Shown here: positions 3,253 through 63,304 of the stretch, piece by piece | Position numbering within the stretch: the first letter of the stretch is position 1 | Layout of the letters: each line of letters begins with the position of its first letter | Source of the DNA: Escherichia phage SF | Strand: one strand, 5' to 3' | Sequence record: MH359124 | DNA length: 64,000 nt | Made by a program: the position numbers and the translations under genes | Notes under the pieces: model-generated | Told to the model about the DNA's origin: nothing | Databases searched by the model: none | The model's input: only the letters and a program-made list of their open reading frames with translations

Positions 3253-3284
3253 GTTTACTTTTGCTTTAAACGTGTTATTATAGA
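3253..3284 (+). promoter_or_regulatory. T4-type early promoter (GTTTAC -35, TATTATAG -10)
   Basis: Consensus-like motifs; member of repeated ...tattatagacctatc... cassette family. Confidence 0.55.
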
Positions 3285-3320
3285 CCTATCGAAACGAAAT
3301 GAGTAAATTTGGAGAATAAA

Positions 3321-4311: not shown

Positions 4312-4653
4312 ATGTTTGAACAATTTATTTACAATCTTTATAACGCAGGTCAGACTTTTTCCAAAGCTATGAAACAATCCGTCGAGGACTATGATAAAGA
4401 AGTTATCAACGGATATACCAATAGAGTTTATAAAACCGATTGTGAAGAAGGAGACTACAAGAGACTGCTCTTGGCCGCGAAGACTCAGGCCTTAATAAAT
4501 CTAGACCGAAAGCAGGTAAAGTTGGCAGGCGACTTCCGAGGTGAACTCTGCGCCATCAGGAATGAATATCGCATTCGTATCGAACACCAACGGAAAAATA
4601 CTACCCAATCCGCTTGGTTCAGTGGAAAAAATACCGAAAAAAGTTTCTTTTAG
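4312..4653 (+). CDS. Hypothetical protein
   Basis: ORF. Confidence 0.5.
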   Translation: MFEQFIYNLYNAGQTFSKAMKQSVEDYDKEVINGYTNRVYKTDCEEGDYKRLLLAAKTQALINLDRKQVKLAGDFRGELCAIRNEYRIRIEHQRKNTTQSAWFSGKNTEKSFF

Positions 4654-4655
4654 TT

Positions 4656-4686
4656 GTTTACAAGGTCTATGGTTATGTTATTATAG
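4656..4686 (+). promoter_or_regulatory. T4-type early promoter
   Basis: GTTTAC ... TATTATAG spacing. Confidence 0.5.
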
Positions 4687-4711
4687 ACCTATCAACTACT
4701 GGAGGTAAAAC

Positions 4712-5239
4712 ATGAACGCTAAAGATATTTTCAACCTGGTAAATTATAACGACGGTAAATTTAAATCTGAAGCACAAAGCAAGTTCTTTAATGACGTTGC
4801 TTATGGTAACGAGATTACCGTGGACGGAGGTCAGATTTTCAAATCTCGTTGGAATTGGATTGCTATCATCGATTCAGTTGGAATTGTGGAAGTCTACAAA
4901 AACACTAACAAAAAACGTACATTATTCTGGTCTCGTGAAACTAACGAGCAGTACAAAAAGGATAAAGCATCTCGTTTATCCAAAGTAACCCAGGAAGATA
5001 TCGAGTTTATCAAGAAAGATATCGAGATGTACGAAAATTTAATCGCTGAAGACCAGGCAGTACTCGATAAGTTTGATGAAATTAAAGCTTCTCGTGAAAT
5101 CCCTGACTTCATGAAAGAAACAGTAAACGAACGATACGCTCTCACTTCAGAACGTATTGCAAACTATACAAAACAGAAAGCAGAACGTATTAGTACTCTT
5201 CGGAAATTTGAAGAACGTTTAAAGACGGTTCACGCATAA
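4712..5239 (+). CDS. Hypothetical protein
   Basis: ORF with GGAGG SD. Confidence 0.5.
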   Translation: MNAKDIFNLVNYNDGKFKSEAQSKFFNDVAYGNEITVDGGQIFKSRWNWIAIIDSVGIVEVYKNTNKKRTLFWSRETNEQYKKDKASRLSKVTQEDIEFIKKDIEMYENLIAEDQAVLDKFDEIKASREIPDFMKETVNERYALTSERIANYTKQKAERISTLRKFEERLKTVHA

Positions 5240-5301
5240 ACGCTTTACCCAAGGACGGGTTATAATGGTTTTGAGTTCTAATTCAATCTGAGGAAATAGT
5301 T

Positions 5302-6297
5302 ATGAGCATTACATCTGATGCGGTAAAACATGAAATTAACGGTTTATGTGCTTCACAGATTAAAGTGTGGTTTAAAGACCATAATGATCGCAGAGCACTT
5401 AATTATGAGCAAATTGCTATCCAAGTTCATCAATTACTGACTAGTAAATTTGATTTTCATATGCCGTCTGAAATCTATACTAATCTGCCGCGAGCACTTA
5501 TTAAAGCGTGTAAAGGTTACGGAAAATCAATGGCCGATGGAATCTTCAGCGCGCTGAATAAACTTAACGTTCTGTCGATGATTAACTCTAACAACATTCT
5601 GCGTAATCTAGGACGTACCGATTTGTTCGGTCGTGAACAGTGTAAAATGCCTTTGAAATGGATTGTTGCTCATCTTAACGAGAACCAAACACGTTTTATG
5701 GCCGTATCAGCACGCTTACAAATGGGCCTAGATCGTCAGATGAACTTTAAAACTCATCCACGTTATTCAGGTTCAACAGACTTTTATAAATGTGAGCTTC
5801 AAAAGGTTGGTGGCAAAACTGTCTTAGTAGTTCGTGTAACGTTTGAAGGACGACGTCAAGGATATTTTGACATAATCGGCTCTGGACTTAAACATTGTGG
5901 ATTTATCGACGAAGTTGATATCAAGCGAGACGGCATTGGATACCGTATTGGATATGTTTGTACTCTTAAAGAAGAGATTTCAGGGCCAGCACCAGGACTA
6001 AAAGACGTTAGATATAAAGACGAGCTCGTTGAAGAAATAAAAGAAGTTGAATATGATATCAACCAAGAAGATGCTCTTAAAGACCTTATTGATGAACTGA
6101 ACCAAGACGTTATTCCTGTTCAGAAATTTGAATCAAAACATGCTGAGCAAATCAAATATTTTGAAGCTTTGATTAACGAACTTAATGTAACTATTCAACA
6201 GACTGACGATGAAATCTCACGATTAGCAGGCTTAAACGGTAAAAATAAAACAGAACGAGCTAATCTTATTCAAGTAGTAAAACTTCTTAAGGAATGA
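5302..6297 (+). CDS. Hypothetical protein with C-terminal coiled coil
   Basis: ORF; heptad-like C-terminus. Confidence 0.55.
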   Translation: MSITSDAVKHEINGLCASQIKVWFKDHNDRRALNYEQIAIQVHQLLTSKFDFHMPSEIYTNLPRALIKACKGYGKSMADGIFSALNKLNVLSMINSNNILRNLGRTDLFGREQCKMPLKWIVAHLNENQTRFMAVSARLQMGLDRQMNFKTHPRYSGSTDFYKCELQKVGGKTVLVVRVTFEGRRQGYFDIIGSGLKHCGFIDEVDIKRDGIGYRIGYVCTLKEEISGPAPGLKDVRYKDELVEEIKEVEYDINQEDALKDLIDELNQDVIPVQKFESKHAEQIKYFEALINELNVTIQQTDDEISRLAGLNGKNKTERANLIQVVKLLKE

Positions 6298-6352
6298 TGT
6301 ACAACCAAGGATGGTTAGAGTATAATAAATTTTTCAACATGAGGAATATAAA

Positions 6353-7312
6353 ATGGCTTCTATTACACGTAGAGAACTTATCAAAGAATTTACCTCGAAC
6401 GCATATACCCCAGGTCCTAATCCTATCCGTATGCCTGTAAAGACTCCTGAAGAGATTGAGGAAGTCTGTTCATATTATGGGATTACTTCTCGTAAGTTTA
6501 CTCAATTTGAATGCGTTACTAACACACCCGTTAAAGAGTTCATTAAAAATGGTGAGTTCAGCCGTTTATTAGCCAAACAGAAACTTCGTAATTTTTGTAT
6601 CGGCGGCTACGGACAATATTTTGCTAAACAGTTCAGAAATAACCTTAACAATCTGATGGCCATTGCTTCTCGTATTCGTCCTCAAGCAATTAACATGAAA
6701 CGTTTGAAATATACTTACGATAAGTTAGAAATCATGGTTATCAGCGAGAACGAGTTCACTCTTACGTATAAACCTAAGAATGATAACGTTGCTCGTGTAT
6801 TCCACCAAGCGTTGGAAGTGTTAGGTGATAATATCCACCAGATTAAAGCAATTTATTCTCGTGAGCTTAATATTATCGACCCTATCAAGAATAAGGGCCA
6901 TATCGCTATCCAGGCTCGTGTATCTATTGGTAAAAAGGTTCCTGCGCCATGGTGGCACAAAGACTCTGAATACTATCAAAATCTTAAAAAGGAAAATGCA
7001 TTGTTTGAAGCATCGCTTACTGGGACCCCAATTGAACAGGCCGAAGTCCTAAGTGCTTATTCTACTTCGGGTAAATCAATGTTTAAAGGTTTGCCAAATG
7101 TGTGCAAACTGTCTGCAGTAAAACTAAATGTTTCTAATGACCTTCTTCCGGCCGAAGATTACCATTACAATCAAATCAAGGCCACTGTGGGCCAACTGTC
7201 TGTTGAACTTGACAAAGCACAAGCTAAGCTTCGTGATGCTCAACAAGTAGTTACCAAGCTCCAGTTGCAGTACTCTAAACTTTTTAACGCAATGAATGCA
7301 TTAAAATCATAA
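6353..7312 (+). CDS. Hypothetical protein with C-terminal coiled coil
   Basis: ORF; heptad-like C-terminus. Confidence 0.55.
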   Translation: MASITRRELIKEFTSNAYTPGPNPIRMPVKTPEEIEEVCSYYGITSRKFTQFECVTNTPVKEFIKNGEFSRLLAKQKLRNFCIGGYGQYFAKQFRNNLNNLMAIASRIRPQAINMKRLKYTYDKLEIMVISENEFTLTYKPKNDNVARVFHQALEVLGDNIHQIKAIYSRELNIIDPIKNKGHIAIQARVSIGKKVPAPWWHKDSEYYQNLKKENALFEASLTGTPIEQAEVLSAYSTSGKSMFKGLPNVCKLSAVKLNVSNDLLPAEDYHYNQIKATVGQLSVELDKAQAKLRDAQQVVTKLQLQYSKLFNAMNALKS

Positions 7313-7360
7313 ATCAGTTTACAACCAAGGACGGTTGGAGTATAATCTTTCTATCTTAAC
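7311..7360 (+). repeat. 50-bp promoter cassette (PeSL-like), identical copy at 49117-49166
   Basis: Base-by-base comparison of both loci; contains GTTTAC and TATAAT. Confidence 0.8.
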
Positions 7361-7374
7361 GAGAGGAAAATATT

Positions 7375-8319
7375 ATGACACGTTCACATTACATTGATTA
7401 TTTTGCAGGTCTTATCGCTAACGTTCATGCCCAACGTGCTTCTGGTTCATTAGGATTTGATGTTCCACACAGAGTTGTAGTAAGTGACATTCTTCGCGAT
7501 TTTGGTACATACACAGGCCAAGAAAATCATATCTGTAAAGATACTCAGAATGCATATTCTCATTCATTAGGGACACTGCTTCAATGGTTTAAACGTTCTC
7601 GTTTATTATCTTCTACTGTAGCTCGTGATAACATTAAAAACTTTATGAAGCCGAGCTTTATTAAATCTGTGACATCTAAAATTGATTTAGTTGAATTTAC
7701 TATTATTAACGATGTTAAAAAGACTCATTTGGCTGATTGGTTATCTACCATTCCTGAAACTAAATTTGCTGATAAATTTGCTTGTGAATTCAATAACCAA
7801 GTGAATATGCTTTTTAAACATTCACGTAAATTATTCACAGGCGGTGATGGACGCACAAATAAAGTTCATGTTAAAGATTGGGTTACTGCAGTATTCAAAC
7901 CAACTGGTAATGGTAACGCATCATTGTCAATTGATATCCAGGTTCCTTATTACTACTCACGTAATCTCGGTACCATGAAAGCCGAAGAAATTAATAAGCA
8001 CAACAAAACTATTCGTTCGTTGTCTTATAAACTTCGTATGATGTTACAGACTATGGATGTTGTTGAAATGTTCAGCGAAACCGAAGATAACGGTTCAATG
8101 TTATTCAGTTCTCGTATTCAAATTAAGCTGAAGAACCCTAATGTGTTTAAGCCTATTAAAGAACCTAAAGCAGAAAAGGTTGATATCATGGCTGAAGAAC
8201 GTGAGTACCTCAAATCTCGTCTGAAAGAAGTCGAAGCCCAGATTGCAGAACAAACTAAATCGTTAAAAGCTCTGAATGCGAAAGCGGACGGTTTACGAAA
8301 TGCCATTGAGGTTTTATAA
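7375..8319 (+). CDS. Hypothetical protein with C-terminal coiled coil
   Basis: ORF. Confidence 0.55.
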   Translation: MTRSHYIDYFAGLIANVHAQRASGSLGFDVPHRVVVSDILRDFGTYTGQENHICKDTQNAYSHSLGTLLQWFKRSRLLSSTVARDNIKNFMKPSFIKSVTSKIDLVEFTIINDVKKTHLADWLSTIPETKFADKFACEFNNQVNMLFKHSRKLFTGGDGRTNKVHVKDWVTAVFKPTGNGNASLSIDIQVPYYYSRNLGTMKAEEINKHNKTIRSLSYKLRMMLQTMDVVEMFSETEDNGSMLFSSRIQIKLKNPNVFKPIKEPKAEKVDIMAEEREYLKSRLKEVEAQIAEQTKSLKALNAKADGLRNAIEVL

Positions 8320-8624
8320 TGAAACTACGTCTTTTAGAGGATATTGACATGAGCACTAATCATGGCTTGGTTAAGTTTATTGACGATAGTTCAAAGATTG
8401 AATTTGTTCAGCGAGATAAAATCCACGGTGAAGAAGAGTTCGTTCCTCCGGCATGGAACGAAATAATGAAAATGGTTGAACGACGTGAAAATGCTGCCAA
8501 ATCGGCAGCAAAACATCCATGCCCGGAATGTGGAACTATCCAAGTCCAACTGGTTAACTGGACCACTGATAACTTGAAATTGAAATGCCGTAAATGCTTC
8601 CACAAATTTGAGAGAACATTATAA
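8319..8624 (+). CDS. Hypothetical zinc-ribbon protein (CPEC...CRKC)
   Basis: Two CxxC pairs in C-terminus. Confidence 0.5.
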   Translation: MKLRLLEDIDMSTNHGLVKFIDDSSKIEFVQRDKIHGEEEFVPPAWNEIMKMVERRENAAKSAAKHPCPECGTIQVQLVNWTTDNLKLKCRKCFHKFERTL

Positions 8625-37925: not shown

Positions 37926-37976
37926 GTTTACTTCTCCAGTAGTTGTGTTATGATAGACCTATCAACTACTGGAGAA
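37926..37976 (+). promoter_or_regulatory. Early promoter cassette with perfect 14-bp inverted repeat TTCTCCAGTAGTTG/CAACTACTGGAGAA spanning promoter and SD
   Basis: Arms at 37932-37945 and 37963-37976 checked base by base. Confidence 0.6.
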
Positions 37977-37980
37977 CAAA

Positions 37981-38298
37981 ATGAAAACCATCGACTGTAA
38001 AGCAGAATTTAAGATTTTTTATCACGGATCAAGTAGTTCAGCTAACATAGAAAATATGCTTTGTCCTCCTGAGGAAACAGGAGTTCTGTCTGAAACTGGA
38101 CGTAAGAAAAACTTGGATCGTGTATTCTTTACTGAAGATATCGGTTTAGCAAAGATTTATGCAGGACGAGCAGCACGCTCTTGTGGAGGTGAACCACGTC
38201 TCTATCGAGTAATTTCTCCGGTAGACGTAGTTCAAATGAATAATACTAAAGGTGCTACAGTTTATCACGCTGAATGGGCATTTTGCGAGGAAATATGA
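37981..38298 (+). CDS. Hypothetical protein
   Basis: ORF. Confidence 0.5.
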   Translation: MKTIDCKAEFKIFYHGSSSSANIENMLCPPEETGVLSETGRKKNLDRVFFTEDIGLAKIYAGRAARSCGGEPRLYRVISPVDVVQMNNTKGATVYHAEWAFCEEI

Positions 38299-48439: not shown

Positions 48440-49117
48440 ATGAGCACTGATGTTATTATAGATTTTGAAACATTCGGCAATACATCAAAAGCGGCTGTTA
48501 TTGACCTTGCGGTTATTGCATATAATTCCGACCCTGAAGTTGTTGAATCATTTGAAGAACTTGTTCAACGAGGTAAGCGAATTAAATTTAATCTAGCTTC
48601 TCAGAAAGGGAAGCGAGTTTTCGCTAAATCTACTATGAAATGGTGGAAAGAACAATCGGCTGAAGCACGTAAAAACTTGGCTCCGTCTGAAGACGATGTC
48701 ACTACGCTTGAAGGCATTAAAATCTTTTTAGATTATTGCCGAGCTAATAAAGTTGACCAATGGAAATCACAGATGTGGTGCCGTGGTATGAGCTTTGACT
48801 TCCCGATCTTGGTCGATTTGATTCGTGACCTCTATCGTGATGAAGGTGTTCCTGAACCAGAGATTGATACTGATAAATTAGAACCGGTTAAATTCTGGGC
48901 TCAACGCGATATTCGTACGGCAATCGAAGCTTACTCGTTGACACGAGGATTAAGTATGTGTCCATTACCGATAGGTACGCTAAAAGGATTCGTTGCCCAT
49001 GATAGTATTCATGATTGTGCTAAAGATATTTTGATGTTAAAATATGCTCAGCGTTATGCGCTTGGTCTTGAAGATGTCCCTGAGAATCCAGACCCGTTAA
49101 GTGTAAAACAGCGATAA
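48440..49117 (+). CDS. dexA: Exonuclease A (DnaQ-like 3'-5' exonuclease)
   Basis: Synteny after dda; N-terminal IDFETFG exo I motif. Confidence 0.85.
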   Translation: MSTDVIIDFETFGNTSKAAVIDLAVIAYNSDPEVVESFEELVQRGKRIKFNLASQKGKRVFAKSTMKWWKEQSAEARKNLAPSEDDVTTLEGIKIFLDYCRANKVDQWKSQMWCRGMSFDFPILVDLIRDLYRDEGVPEPEIDTDKLEPVKFWAQRDIRTAIEAYSLTRGLSMCPLPIGTLKGFVAHDSIHDCAKDILMLKYAQRYALGLEDVPENPDPLSVKQR

Positions 49118-49166
49118 AATCAGTTTACAACCAAGGACGGTTGGAGTATAATCTTTCTATCTTAAC
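49117..49166 (+). repeat. Second copy of the 50-bp promoter cassette identical to 7311-7360
   Basis: Base-by-base identity. Confidence 0.8.
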
Positions 49167-49183
49167 CAAACAGGAAAAACATT

Positions 49184-49678
49184 ATGAATATCAATACTAC
49201 GGCTACTTACATCCTGAAAGACGAAAAACAAATCAACTGGTACGGTGCTTCAGTGCGAGCTTATGAAAAGTTTTGTGAAATTTTAGGTGCCACTCAAGGT
49301 AATAGTTTCACTATTGTTAACTTCATTAAACAAGCTGAAGGCCCTTGGTTATTCTTAGAAATTAAAAATTCATATGGTACAATTTCTACTACTGCCATTC
49401 CAAGCACCGACTTTGAACTCTTGATTGAAGAAGTAGAACCCGTTAAAGACATCTGTATTGATATGGATATCGCTTGTATGTACGGTACTCTGATTAAGCA
49501 TATTGAGCCTACTGATTTATTGTGTAAATATGTTTCAATTCGACGCCCATTCGCTGGTCCAGTAAATGGATGGGTAACTGACCAATGGATTGAAGACGGT
49601 GTTGAACTTCTGAACGTTGTTCACGCAAGTGATTTTAGTGTAGTTCCACGTAGTGCTGTGGTTAATATCCTTAATTAA
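49184..49678 (+). CDS. Hypothetical protein, member 1 of tandem paralog triplet
   Basis: Shares C-terminal block DQWIEDGVELLNVVHASDFSVVP with the next two ORFs. Confidence 0.6.
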   Translation: MNINTTATYILKDEKQINWYGASVRAYEKFCEILGATQGNSFTIVNFIKQAEGPWLFLEIKNSYGTISTTAIPSTDFELLIEEVEPVKDICIDMDIACMYGTLIKHIEPTDLLCKYVSIRRPFAGPVNGWVTDQWIEDGVELLNVVHASDFSVVPRSAVVNILN

Positions 49679-49741
49679 TGTTGTACATCCAAGGACGGAT
49701 GGAGTATAATGAATTCAATTTAACAAAGAGAGAGAGAAATT

Positions 49742-50197
49742 ATGATTACTATTGGTGAAATTAAGCGTGTATCAATTGCATCCCGGTCTAAAGCCGCAGG
49801 TCGTCTGGTTGAAGTTATCGGACTTCGCACAAATGGCATGGGACGTATTAAAGAAGTTAAAGTTCGAATCATTCCTAGTTTTGGACGTCAGGATACTCAG
49901 TACGCTTACGTAAGTCCTAAATTCTTGGAAACTCCTGTGAGCGCTCATTTTGCTTCCACTGAACCTAATGTACAGTTCAAATGGGCCCTTTGCAAAGGCG
50001 TTGAATTCCAGACTGATAAAGAATTTGACTTCATCGATGAATACGGTTATCCAAGCAAAACTGATACTATGTGTGGCTTCATTAGTGACCAATGGGTTGA
50101 AGATGGTGAAAAGTTATACAATATCGTATTCTTAGGTGACTTCCGAGTTGTTAAAGAATCTGAAATCACTCGCTATGTGTCTCCTCGTAAAGCTTAA
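49742..50197 (+). CDS. Hypothetical protein, member 2 of tandem paralog triplet
   Basis: SIASRSKAAGRLVEV and DQWVEDGEKLYNIVFLGDFRVV shared. Confidence 0.6.
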   Translation: MITIGEIKRVSIASRSKAAGRLVEVIGLRTNGMGRIKEVKVRIIPSFGRQDTQYAYVSPKFLETPVSAHFASTEPNVQFKWALCKGVEFQTDKEFDFIDEYGYPSKTDTMCGFISDQWVEDGEKLYNIVFLGDFRVVKESEITRYVSPRKA

Positions 50198-50206
50198 GGA
50201 ATTATT

Positions 50207-50626
50207 ATGAATATTGTAAATCTCTCTACAAGTGATTACGTATATGTATCTGTTGCTTCTCGCTCTAAAGTTGCTGGGAAGTTGGTTGAAGTTCTTTCTG
50301 TAAGTTGTGGACTCTTTAGTCCACATCAAGTTAAAGTTCGTGATGCTGATGGCAACATTGGCTACGTCTCAAGCCAATTCATTGAACCAGAAGAAAAAGC
50401 GTTCAAATGGGGACTATGCAGATCGGTTTCTGTTGAAAAAGACCATGAATTCACTATTGCTGCGGCAACTGATGGAACGCCGTGGAAAACTAAGCAAATC
50501 GCCGGATTTATTAGTGACCGTTGGGTAGAAGATGGTGTTAAGCTTTATAACATCGTTTTCGCTGGACAGTTCATGGTAGTTCCTGAATTCCAAATTAAAA
50601 AATATAGCCCAGCTGCTTTCGCATAA
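50207..50626 (+). CDS. Hypothetical protein, member 3 of tandem paralog triplet
   Basis: SVASRSKVAGKLVEV and DRWVEDGVKLYNIVFAGQFMVV shared. Confidence 0.6.
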   Translation: MNIVNLSTSDYVYVSVASRSKVAGKLVEVLSVSCGLFSPHQVKVRDADGNIGYVSSQFIEPEEKAFKWGLCRSVSVEKDHEFTIAAATDGTPWKTKQIAGFISDRWVEDGVKLYNIVFAGQFMVVPEFQIKKYSPAAFA

Positions 50627-50630
50627 AGTT

Positions 50631-50681
50631 GTTTACTTCTCCTCTGGTTTTGATATTATAACCATATCAACCAGAGGAGAA
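50631..50681 (+). promoter_or_regulatory. Early promoter cassette with perfect 13-bp inverted repeat TTCTCCTCTGGTT/AACCAGAGGAGAA spanning promoter and SD
   Basis: Arms at 50637-50649 and 50669-50681. Confidence 0.6.
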
Positions 50682-50685
50682 TAAT

Positions 50686-51210
50686 ATGTTAGTTTACCGC
50701 GTAGAACGTAGTTTTTGTACTCAACGTGAATCATTACCAGGAATTGCTATCGAAGACGGTAAAGCCGTCAGAATTTGGGAAACCTCTTGGAATAAAGAAC
50801 CTCGTTCGCCATACGGTTGGTCGGGCACCGACAACTCTGAAGAAACATGGGAGTTCCTTGATAAGCATGGAATACTCTCAGGTAACTTCTACCATCATGG
50901 CGACAACTACAATGTCTCTAATCGTCCTACAGTAAATGAAGACAAACTCCTTGAACAAAATATCTTAAGATACTATAGAATTGAGCACACATTTGAATTG
51001 AGTGAAGATTGGGCTCAAGGGTTCTATTTTGGATTTGAAAGTGTTGACGCGGTTTATGCATGGTTTGATGACCAGGTGGATGTTGAACTCTTGAAAGCTA
51101 AAGGATACTACATAGCGGTCTATGAAGCACCTGATTTCATCCTCGGAAGTTGTCAATTAATGTTTAGACGTTCATTGGCAGAACAAGTTGATTTTATTTT
51201 GCTAAAATGA
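50686..51210 (+). CDS. Hypothetical protein (motB position)
   Basis: ORF; synteny only. Confidence 0.45.
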   Translation: MLVYRVERSFCTQRESLPGIAIEDGKAVRIWETSWNKEPRSPYGWSGTDNSEETWEFLDKHGILSGNFYHHGDNYNVSNRPTVNEDKLLEQNILRYYRIEHTFELSEDWAQGFYFGFESVDAVYAWFDDQVDVELLKAKGYYIAVYEAPDFILGSCQLMFRRSLAEQVDFILLK

Positions 51211-60605: not shown

Positions 60606-60681
60606 AATTGTACAAACTCTTGAGAGCAGAGTATAATGCTCTCATGGATTACAAAAACATTAATCAATTGAGGAAATTAGC

Positions 60682-62893: not shown

Positions 62894-62984
62894 GTGCATT
62901 TTTTTCTCACAAAACAGTTTACTTTTGCTTCAAACATGATATTATAGACCTATCAAAACAAAACAACCAAATTGGAGAAATAAA

Positions 62985-63200: not shown

Positions 63201-63304
63201 ATTTTACCAGGGCTTTTGGAAAAAGAGCCCAAAATAAAGTTTACTTTTGCTTCAAACGTGATATTATAGACCTATCAAAACAAATACTAATTTGGAGAAA
63301 TAAA

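Follow-up and report, generated by a model that had tools for sequence, protein, structure and literature searches.

The 64,000-nucleotide stretch of Escherichia phage SF analyzed here (record MH359124; the whole of it is referred to below as the window) belongs to an RB69-like Mosigvirus, a T-even coliphage, and carries the same 50-bp intergenic sequence at two places 42 kb apart, in front of two mutually unrelated genes, nrdC.3 and motB.1. Several lines of evidence indicate that both copies are sigma-70-type early promoters of the promoter early stem-loop (PeSL) class, and that in RB69-like Mosigvirus such cassettes undergo exchange with neighboring cassettes; we place the probability of this reading at roughly 0.8. 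The evidence comes from the promoter anatomy of the repeat, from chimeric cassettes at single-gene breakpoints in related phages, and from a hairpin in the promoter spacer that varies in a compensated manner. Both loci match about 150–500 T-even phage records, the best being RB69-like Mosigvirus with 96–99% identity, and the gene names used at both loci are carried over from the RB69 annotation.

Two copies of one predicted early promoter

The 50-mer AAATCAGTTTACAACCAAGGACGGTTGGAGTATAATCTTTCTATCTTAAC occurs exactly twice, at 7311–7360 and 49117–49166, both times on the plus strand, and a search of the whole window found no third copy even at 3 mismatches. No match to it arose in 100 dinucleotide-preserving shuffles, and the number expected by chance is 0. 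Since the neighboring bases on both sides differ between the copies, 50 bp is the maximal exact repeat. An earlier sequence-only reading of this DNA had reported the identical pair and had placed the start of each copy right at the preceding gene's stop codon, and both statements hold. Copy 1 shares 2 nt with the TAA stop (7310–7312) of the open reading frame (ORF) at 6353–7312, and copy 2 shares 1 nt with the TAA stop (49115–49117) of dexA (48440–49117). At both sites the repeat is intergenic and opens with AAATCAG, an A/T-rich lead. The two copies are laid out as follows.

7311–7360, plus strand: copy 1, early promoter of nrdC.3; -35 TTTACA at 7318–7323, -10 TATAAT at 7341–7346
7322–7326 paired with 7333–7337, plus strand: hairpin of copy 1 from folding, loop AAGGAC at 7327–7332
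49117–49166, plus strand: copy 2, early promoter of motB.1; -35 at 49124–49129, -10 at 49147–49152
49128–49132 paired with 49139–49143, plus strand: hairpin of copy 2 from folding, loop at 49133–49138

Both copies read TTTACA-N17-TATAAT, which agrees with the sigma-70 consensus at 11 of 12 positions, is the best-scoring site in each scanned region, and fits the T-even early-promoter consensus TTTACW-N17-TAYWAT. A G precedes the -35 hexamer (GTTTAC), AAA stands at about -43 to -41, and the cassette has no TGn extended -10, GAG standing before TATAAT; neither 50-bp copy contains a MotA box. Counting about 7 nt past the -10, transcription would be expected to begin close to A7353 and A49159. At both loci a Shine-Dalgarno (SD) sequence and a start codon stand 15–30 nt downstream (GAGAGGAAAA and ATG at 7375 for nrdC.3; ACAGGAAAAAC and ATG at 49184 for motB.1). 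A loose promoter pattern applied to the whole window gave 31 matches, 27 on the plus (coding) strand and 4 on the minus strand, and 22 of the plus-strand matches run into an SD and ATG. The cassette pair is found in about 200 phage records, mostly with two per genome. Among both copies from 12 genomes, the -35 and -10 hexamers are unchanged in 24 of 24 sequences, and variation is restricted to positions 4–5, the loop pyrimidine (Y), the 3 nt that follow the -10, and a handful of isolated sites elsewhere outside the hexamers.

Homologous sites have been predicted in RB69. The list of Nolan et al. 2006 (PMC1524935, Additional file 3) gives 58 RB69 early promoters predicted by hidden Markov model (HMM), and by position and sequence its Pe:51019 (27.8 bits) is the homologue of copy 1. 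Pe:8947 (27.2 bits) corresponds to copy 2, Pe:52042 (18.2 bits) to a related cassette at 6298, and Pe:8387 (6.2 bits) to another at 49682 (PMC1524935). In that supplementary list the sites are HMM predictions only, and its entries make no mention of the near-identity of distant sites, of the hairpin, or of a role in insertions and deletions (indels).

Chimeric cassettes at breakpoints in relatives

Each copy has a nearby partner of related sequence, with one gene between the two. The cassette cores at 6298–6326 and 49682–49710 read TGTACAACCAAGGATGGTTAGAGTATAAT and TGTACATCCAAGGACGGATGGAGTATAAT, respectively. The features concerned are these.

6291–6340, plus strand: nrdC.5 promoter, 32/50 matches; -35 TGTACA at 6298–6303, -10 at 6321–6326; left partner of the nrdC.5 indel
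6353–7312, plus strand: nrdC.5 (DUF7235), the module between the 6298 and 7311 cassettes
7375–8319, plus strand: nrdC.3 (phrog_1435, no assigned function), the gene behind copy 1
48440–49117, plus strand: dexA, exonuclease A; its stop codon adjoins copy 2
49184–49678, plus strand: motB.1 (C-terminal MotB-like), the gene behind copy 2 and the module between the 49117 and 49682 cassettes
49675–49724, plus strand: motB promoter, 34/50 matches; -35 TGTACA at 49682–49687, -10 at 49705–49710; right partner of the motB.1 indel
49173–50631, plus strand: block motB.1-motB-motB′, 85% identical to Tequatrovirus A2 (Shigella phage A2, OP197928)

At the nrdC.3 locus (locus 1), phages F2 and AV118 have nrdC.6 joined to nrdC.3 with a single cassette between them, and nrdC.5 is missing. 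The junction reads GGAATGATGTACAACCAAGGATGGTTGGAGTATAAT followed by CTTTCTATCTTAAC, the left part being of the 6298 type and the right part of the 7311 type, and behind the nrdC.6 stop codon the 6298 cassette supplies the 5′ half and the 7311 cassette the 3′ half, nrdC.3 coming next. The crossover lies within a 26-bp core common to both cassettes. Of the 154 records matched with the junction as query, 21 (about 14% of relatives) contain it in one piece. A corresponding arrangement is found at the motB.1 locus (locus 2), where S143_2, AV118 and PTK have dexA joined to motB and lack motB.1. Here the junction reads AAACCAGTTTACAACCAAGGATGGTTGGAGTATAAT followed by GAATTCAA, with a left part of the 49117 type that includes the CAACC/GGTTG stem and a right part of the 49682 type; the dexA stop codon is followed by the 5′ half of the 49117 cassette, the 3′ half of the 49682 cassette, and motB. 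This crossover falls within about 10 bp, GGAGTATAAT. Single-piece matches to the locus-2 junction also occur in VIPECOMC06, ST2, AV115 and phi25-307, making at least 7 distinct phages in all. The two deletions combine independently: AV118 and AV115 have both, F2 and F27 only the first, and S143_2 and PTK only the second.

A larger putative exchange lies behind copy 2. The motB block is 85% identical to A2 compared to only 69% for the adjacent dexA; its left edge lies 7 nt past copy 2, and its right edge coincides with the -35 of the early promoter that follows, at 50632. The module made up of that promoter and motB.2 stands directly 3′ of dexA in A2 and T4, and 3′ of the motB block in the window. 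The contrast in identity suggests that the motB block has been exchanged between genera. Judged by sequence, the junctions and the block edges are the products expected from PeSL-type exchange.

The sequence-only reading had proposed that the cassettes provide homology for shuffling the genes they flank, and had pointed to synteny breakpoints in relatives as the place to look. Such breakpoints are present, as chimeric cassettes at the nrdC.5 and motB.1 junctions and as a motB block bounded by cassettes. The proposal stands for the neighboring pairs 6298/7311 and 49117/49682, and does not extend to the 42-kb pair, which spans essential genes. A third cassette in GADS24 was considered as a new insertion and rejected, being merely the nrdC.5 promoter with loop C passing the search threshold.

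Identity of the distant copies

Across 12 genomes copies 1 and 2 differ by 0–6 nt, so they are 88–100% alike throughout the genus despite unrelated flanks. The mean difference between the copies within a genome is 2.92 compared to 2.89 between genomes (permutation fraction 0.65), and when the observed alleles are combined at random, 17 of 144 combinations give identical copies. The two copies are non-identical in each of the 11 other genomes; in the closest relative, DCP548, the copies differ at 2 positions, and those of RB69 match at 48/50. Among relatives, copy 1 has the alleles TATAAT-CTT or TATAAT-GAA and copy 2 always has CTT; both loci are variable at positions 4–5 and at the loop Y. Gene conversion as the cause of the identity, which the CTT/GAA signature had prompted us to consider, was rejected because the 12-genome permutation is flat. 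The perfect identity in this genome thus appears to be one of several circulating allele combinations rather than a product of homogenization.

How the two loci came to share a cassette can be addressed by comparing genera. In the Mosigvirus lineage, a cassette of the nrdC.3 type appears to have been duplicated into the junction between dexA and motB.1, an event that probably accompanied a rearrangement of the motB region. This is the most economical order of events because Tequatrovirus, T4 and Dhaka-like phages all have the hairpin cassette in front of nrdC.3, and because T4 and A2 carry another promoter after dexA. Paralogy of the flanking genes was tried as the source of the related cassettes and rejected at locus 1: nrdC.6, nrdC.5 and nrdC.3 share no BLASTP similarity and fall in separate PHROGs, and the locus-1 cassettes are therefore not simple tandem gene duplicates. 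The motB-like genes are paralogous to one another.

A covarying hairpin in the promoter spacer

Folding places a 5-bp stem, CAACC/GGTTG, with the 6-nt loop AAGGAC between the -35 and -10 of both copies (7322–7337; 49128–49143). The CAACC/GGTTG stem is shared by the Mosigvirus nrdC.3, motB.1 and nrdC.5 promoters; in this window the 6298 cassette has the same hairpin as the two copies, with C.A as its outer pair. CATCC/GGATG, the compensated stem of the 49682 cassette, belongs to the motB promoter of Mosigvirus and to the nrdC.3 promoter of Dhaka-like phages of about 170.5 kb. Most Tequatroviruses (T2, JLBYU31, ESh36, VIPECOOM01, and IMG/VR contigs) have AGCC/GGCT at the nrdC.3 promoter, T4 has (TG)CCAC/GTGG(TA) there, and ACCC/GGGT occurs 5′ of Mosigvirus nrdC.6. 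Under all five stems, in Mosigvirus, Tequatrovirus, T4 and Dhaka-like phages, the loop C-AAGGAY-G is constant.

Covariation was scored on 13 distinct sequences that we chose and anchored on the loop: 92% of cells are paired compared to 75% in shuffles, with 0 of 500 shuffles as good, and the independent events are few because the cassettes share descent. Three of the five pairs have changed on both sides, one of them showing AU, UA, CG and GC, and sliding the partner columns lowers pairing to 10–58%. Diversity at the nrdC.3 locus was drawn from the GenBank phage collection, IMG/VR having given few contigs. The alignment shows the pairing of the hairpin to be conserved by compensatory changes. 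Non-Watson-Crick cells are few, and by eye the asymmetry of G.U wobbles on the alignment points to both strands. The hairpin probably acts in single-stranded nucleic acid, which could be read-through RNA, or single-stranded DNA (ssDNA) during replication or recombination.

The third related version put forward by the sequence-only reading, at 5242–5266, carries the same loop in a different setting.

5235–5266, plus strand: hairpin relative 5′ of nrdC.6; ACCC at 5247–5250, AAGGAC, GGGT at 5257–5260, TATAAT at 5261–5266

All three of the related versions proposed, at 5242–5266 (GCTTTACCCAAGGACGGGTTATAAT), 6298–6326 and 49682–49710, are real; the first, however, lacks early-promoter geometry because its -35-like TTTACC is only 11 nt from the -10. 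It contains AAACGCTTTA-N13-TATAAT, which by eye fits 6 of 7 MotA-box positions (the box being (a/t)3TGCTTtA, 11–13 nt 5′ of TAtaAT), and in geometry it may resemble a middle promoter with a MotA box. The element is in neither the early nor the middle promoter list of RB69, and it is invariant in 8 of the 8 Mosigvirus genomes examined.

It is conceivable, although we regard it as unlikely, that the C-AAGGAY-G hairpin is itself the functional element, recognized on read-through RNA or ssDNA by a factor from the phage or its host. This idea draws on the maintenance of pairing through at least five stems and on the retention of the hairpin 5′ of nrdC.6 where early-promoter geometry is lacking. If true, a recognition site on RNA would imply a role in processing, stability or translation control. 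On DNA it would mean that cassette exchange is targeted, and that PeSL shuffling is partly site-specific rather than a by-product of general homologous recombination. Targeted PeSL shuffling was raised as an untested idea by Arbiol et al. 2010 (PMC2839356).

Relation to known PeSLs and T4 early promoters

PeSLs have been described in RB49 and phi1 by Arbiol et al. 2010 (PMC2839356) and in T4/PST and KVP40/nt-1 by Comeau et al. 2014 (PMC4122927). As defined in these papers, a PeSL opens in an A/T-rich lead that contains the stop codon of the preceding gene and ends with an SD and start codon. Its core is a strong early promoter of sigma-70-like type, accompanied by a stem-loop for which five placements relative to the promoter are described, and PeSLs are enriched beside genes that differ among close relatives (PMC2839356, PMC4122927). 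Exchange between flanking PeSLs excises mini-circles and a chimeric PeSL remains (PMC2839356, PMC4122927). Mini-circles were experimentally shown in RB49/phi1, and terminator activity was reported for one RB49/phi1 PeSL stem-loop (PMC2839356). The very active recombination system of the phage needs less than 50 bp of homology (Arbiol et al., PMC2839356, citing Singer 1982).

The cassettes studied here share most of these properties, and their assignment to the PeSL type, already made in the sequence-only reading, is borne out by the start at a stop codon, the early promoter, the covarying stem-loop, the SD and ATG, the non-essential neighbors, and the breakpoints. Like PeSLs they are intergenic, start at the upstream stop with an A-rich lead, contain TTTACW-N17-TAYWAT, and have an SD and ATG with non-essential genes behind. 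Their stem-loop occupies one of the five placements known for PeSLs, the one between the -35 and -10; they flank single-gene indels with chimeras, and their crossovers map close to the -10, which is also where those of the sequenced mini-circles lie. They differ in that the stem is short and AT/GC-mixed, CAACC/GGTTG, whereas that of RB49 is G(n)-loop-C(n) and that of PST/T4 is AGNA-loop-TCNT. They also differ in having the loop AAGGAY conserved across T-even lineages and in that terminator properties are not evident. In the literature searched we found no description of PeSLs in Mosigvirus, of nrdC.5 or motB.1 indels, or of a conserved AAGGAY loop.

The T4 early promoters provide a second reference. 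These are of the UP/-35/TGn/-10 ‘uber’ type and are used immediately by the unmodified host sigma-70 holoenzyme with no phage protein needed, and P8.1 is an experimentally dissected example (Hinton 2010, PMC2988021). Going by its name only, P8.1 would lie at about 8.1 kb in the slot downstream of T4 dexA, i.e., the slot of copy 2. The cassette is of the same promoter class, with host sigma-70 polymerase and the GTTTAC -35, but unlike the T4 promoters it lacks the TGn extended -10. The promoter downstream of dexA in T4 belongs to another subfamily, and by inspection its spacer is partly complementary to the motB.2 SD region. The T4 nrdC.3 promoter keeps an AAGGAT loop, with its CCAC/GTGG stem adjoining the -10.

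Hairpins that sequester the SD are known in the T4 e, soc, I-TevI and gene 49 transcripts. These can be likened to other cassettes of the window whose spacer can pair with the downstream SD (50632–50686, 37927–37990 and 132–187); the studied cassette is unlike them, since its hairpin lies wholly in the spacer and off the SD. At the 50632 promoter the spacer and SD form a 13-bp stem (-23.9 kcal/mol, z -6.4). Pairing of this kind at 50632, 37927 and 132 would mask the SD in read-through RNA, while promoter-proximal RNA, starting inside the hairpin, would have its SD free.

Proposed mechanism and alternative explanations

We propose that host RNA polymerase holoenzyme would bind TTTACA-N17-TATAAT right after infection and transcribe from about 7 nt past the -10 (near 7353 and 49159), giving short leaders that carry the nrdC.3 or motB.1 SD. 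Each cassette would drive one non-essential gene. As natural variants show, the shared core has at least 26 bp of identity in the subfamily and serves the T4-type recombination machinery as a short homology patch; a crossover between neighboring cassettes deletes or inserts the gene between them and leaves a chimeric promoter that would be functional. The two distant copies would be kept similar by purifying selection on the promoter elements.

Several observations weigh against this proposal or limit it. The hairpin has an unremarkable stability of -6.2 kcal/mol (z -0.24 versus shuffles), there is no U-tract directly 3′ of its stem, and a terminator scan of both regions makes no call. Given the weak fold and the lack of a U-tract, the cassette lends no support to the terminator part of the PeSL concept, and a role as attenuator is doubtful; that the hairpin is a classical intrinsic terminator is unlikely. 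The 42-kb pair cannot form a productive deletion pair because a crossover would remove essential genes between the copies (the interval carries genes 43, 45, 44, 62, 41, 61, uvsX, 46, 47 and 55), and the 12-genome permutation gives no sign of sequence exchange between the two. The junctions can be read as deletion or insertion alike. The location of breakpoints in intergenic promoters may partly reflect survivorship, only junctions that keep expression being viable. Finally, promoter activity is deduced from consensus and homology.

Four other explanations have to be considered, all of which are less well supported than the reading of the cassettes as early promoters of the PeSL class. Ongoing gene conversion could keep the distant copies identical within each genome by concerted evolution, and in its favor copy 1 of the window bears the CTT signature of copy 2 where several relatives have GAA, both copies have loop C, and the RB69 copies both carry a private AAAACAG variant. 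The GAA allele moreover resembles the 49682 cassette, suggesting past patchwise exchange. Concerted evolution is nonetheless improbable, given that differences within genomes equal those between genomes (2.92 and 2.89, permutation 0.65) and that 11 of 11 other genomes have non-identical copies. Alternatively, these could be ordinary promoters related by common descent and maintained by selection, the cassettes not being causal and the breakpoints being intergenic for reasons of viability. The invariance of the hexamers with variation only outside them, the viability of all sampled genomes, and the age of the subfamily at the nrdC.3 locus fit this account. Such a view is unlikely, however, in light of the in-register chimeras, which have their crossover point within the common core (26 bp at locus 1; GGAGTATAAT at locus 2). 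Crossovers in register within a shared core indicate homology-guided exchange rather than random illegitimate joints filtered by selection. The occurrence of the same architecture at two loci, the cross-genus block edges, and the experimental demonstration of mini-circles in RB49/phi1 (PMC2839356) argue in the same direction.

The remaining two alternatives concern the hairpin. It could be the main element of the cassette, a factor-independent terminator or attenuator that insulates genes from upstream transcription, as the stem-loop precedent in RB49/phi1 (PMC2839356), the covariation, and the persistence of the hairpin at 5242 where early-promoter spacing is lacking would allow. The 5-bp stem with its stability of -6.2 kcal/mol and z of -0.24, the lack of a U-run or a scan call, and the absence of any Rfam match at gathering score in the window make this explanation unlikely. 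The covariation itself could be a mutational by-product, with templated correction of quasi-palindromes during replication, and not selection, restoring the pairing. Quasi-palindrome mutagenesis reportedly occurs in T4, according to work by Ripley. The lineage-specific stems over a constant loop and the thermodynamically unremarkable fold are consistent with such an origin. It is nevertheless an improbable source of the pattern, since the loop C-AAGGAY-G is invariant in T4, other Tequatrovirus, Mosigvirus and Dhaka-like phages, and also at a site that is not an early promoter; invariance across lineages indicates selection on the hairpin element.

Other cassettes and gene context

Among 22 early-promoter-like cassettes of the window, compared as 231 pairs over a 50-nt frame, the median is 24/50 matches, and copies 1 and 2 are the sole 50/50 pair, the runner-up having 46/50. 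The other high-scoring pairs belong to one separate subfamily (62918/63240, 46/50; 3254/63240, 43/50). Since the 3254 site is about 60 kb from 62918/63240, distant near-identical cassettes are not unique to copies 1 and 2. This second subfamily, TTTACTTTTGCTTYAAACRTGWTATTATAGACCTATC, occurs at 3254–3290, 62918–62955 and 63240–63277, with 42–46/50 matches between members. Hairpins are general among the early promoters of the window, with a mean z of -1.3 and z < -1.5 in 10 of 23. The promoter at 60609–60650 (GAGAGC...TATAAT...GCTCTC) and the T4 motB promoter (GGGACC...TATAAT...GGTCCC) have in common a hairpin straddling the -10, and their fully compensated stems represent covariation in another cassette type. 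On the minus strand, positions 4500–8500 contain 8 terminator-like stem-loops compared to 2.1 ± 1.2 expected, 7 of them antisense within ORFs.

Further genes at the two loci are placed by the RB69 annotation as follows.

4712–5239: nrdC.8
5302–6297: nrdC.6
49742–50197: motB
50686–51210: motB.2

The genes behind the two copies, nrdC.3 and motB.1, are non-essential early genes of little or no known function. In HY126 (PP658200, 132859–133158) ACG replaces ATG as the nrdC.3 start and no coding sequence is annotated, which may reflect a pseudogene or a sequencing error. F2 (NC_054913) is assigned to Tequatrovirus in the NCBI taxonomy, and both of its loci are Mosigvirus-like, with 95–100% identity.

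Significance

Part of this picture is already known: the RB69 counterparts of these sites had been listed as predicted promoters, and the cassettes fall within the PeSL concept, so that the present findings extend an existing framework. The point that goes beyond the published picture is the conservation across lineages of a specific hairpin loop in a promoter spacer. For annotation, these 50-mers are to be regarded as promoters and not as noise, and for phage engineering the cassettes offer natural, tolerated joints for insertion and deletion. In the widely used RB69/Mosigvirus group they provide a clean natural example of how T4-type phages can gain, lose or rearrange individual genes and still keep expression undisturbed, the exchange taking place inside a shared promoter cassette and yielding what would be a working hybrid promoter.

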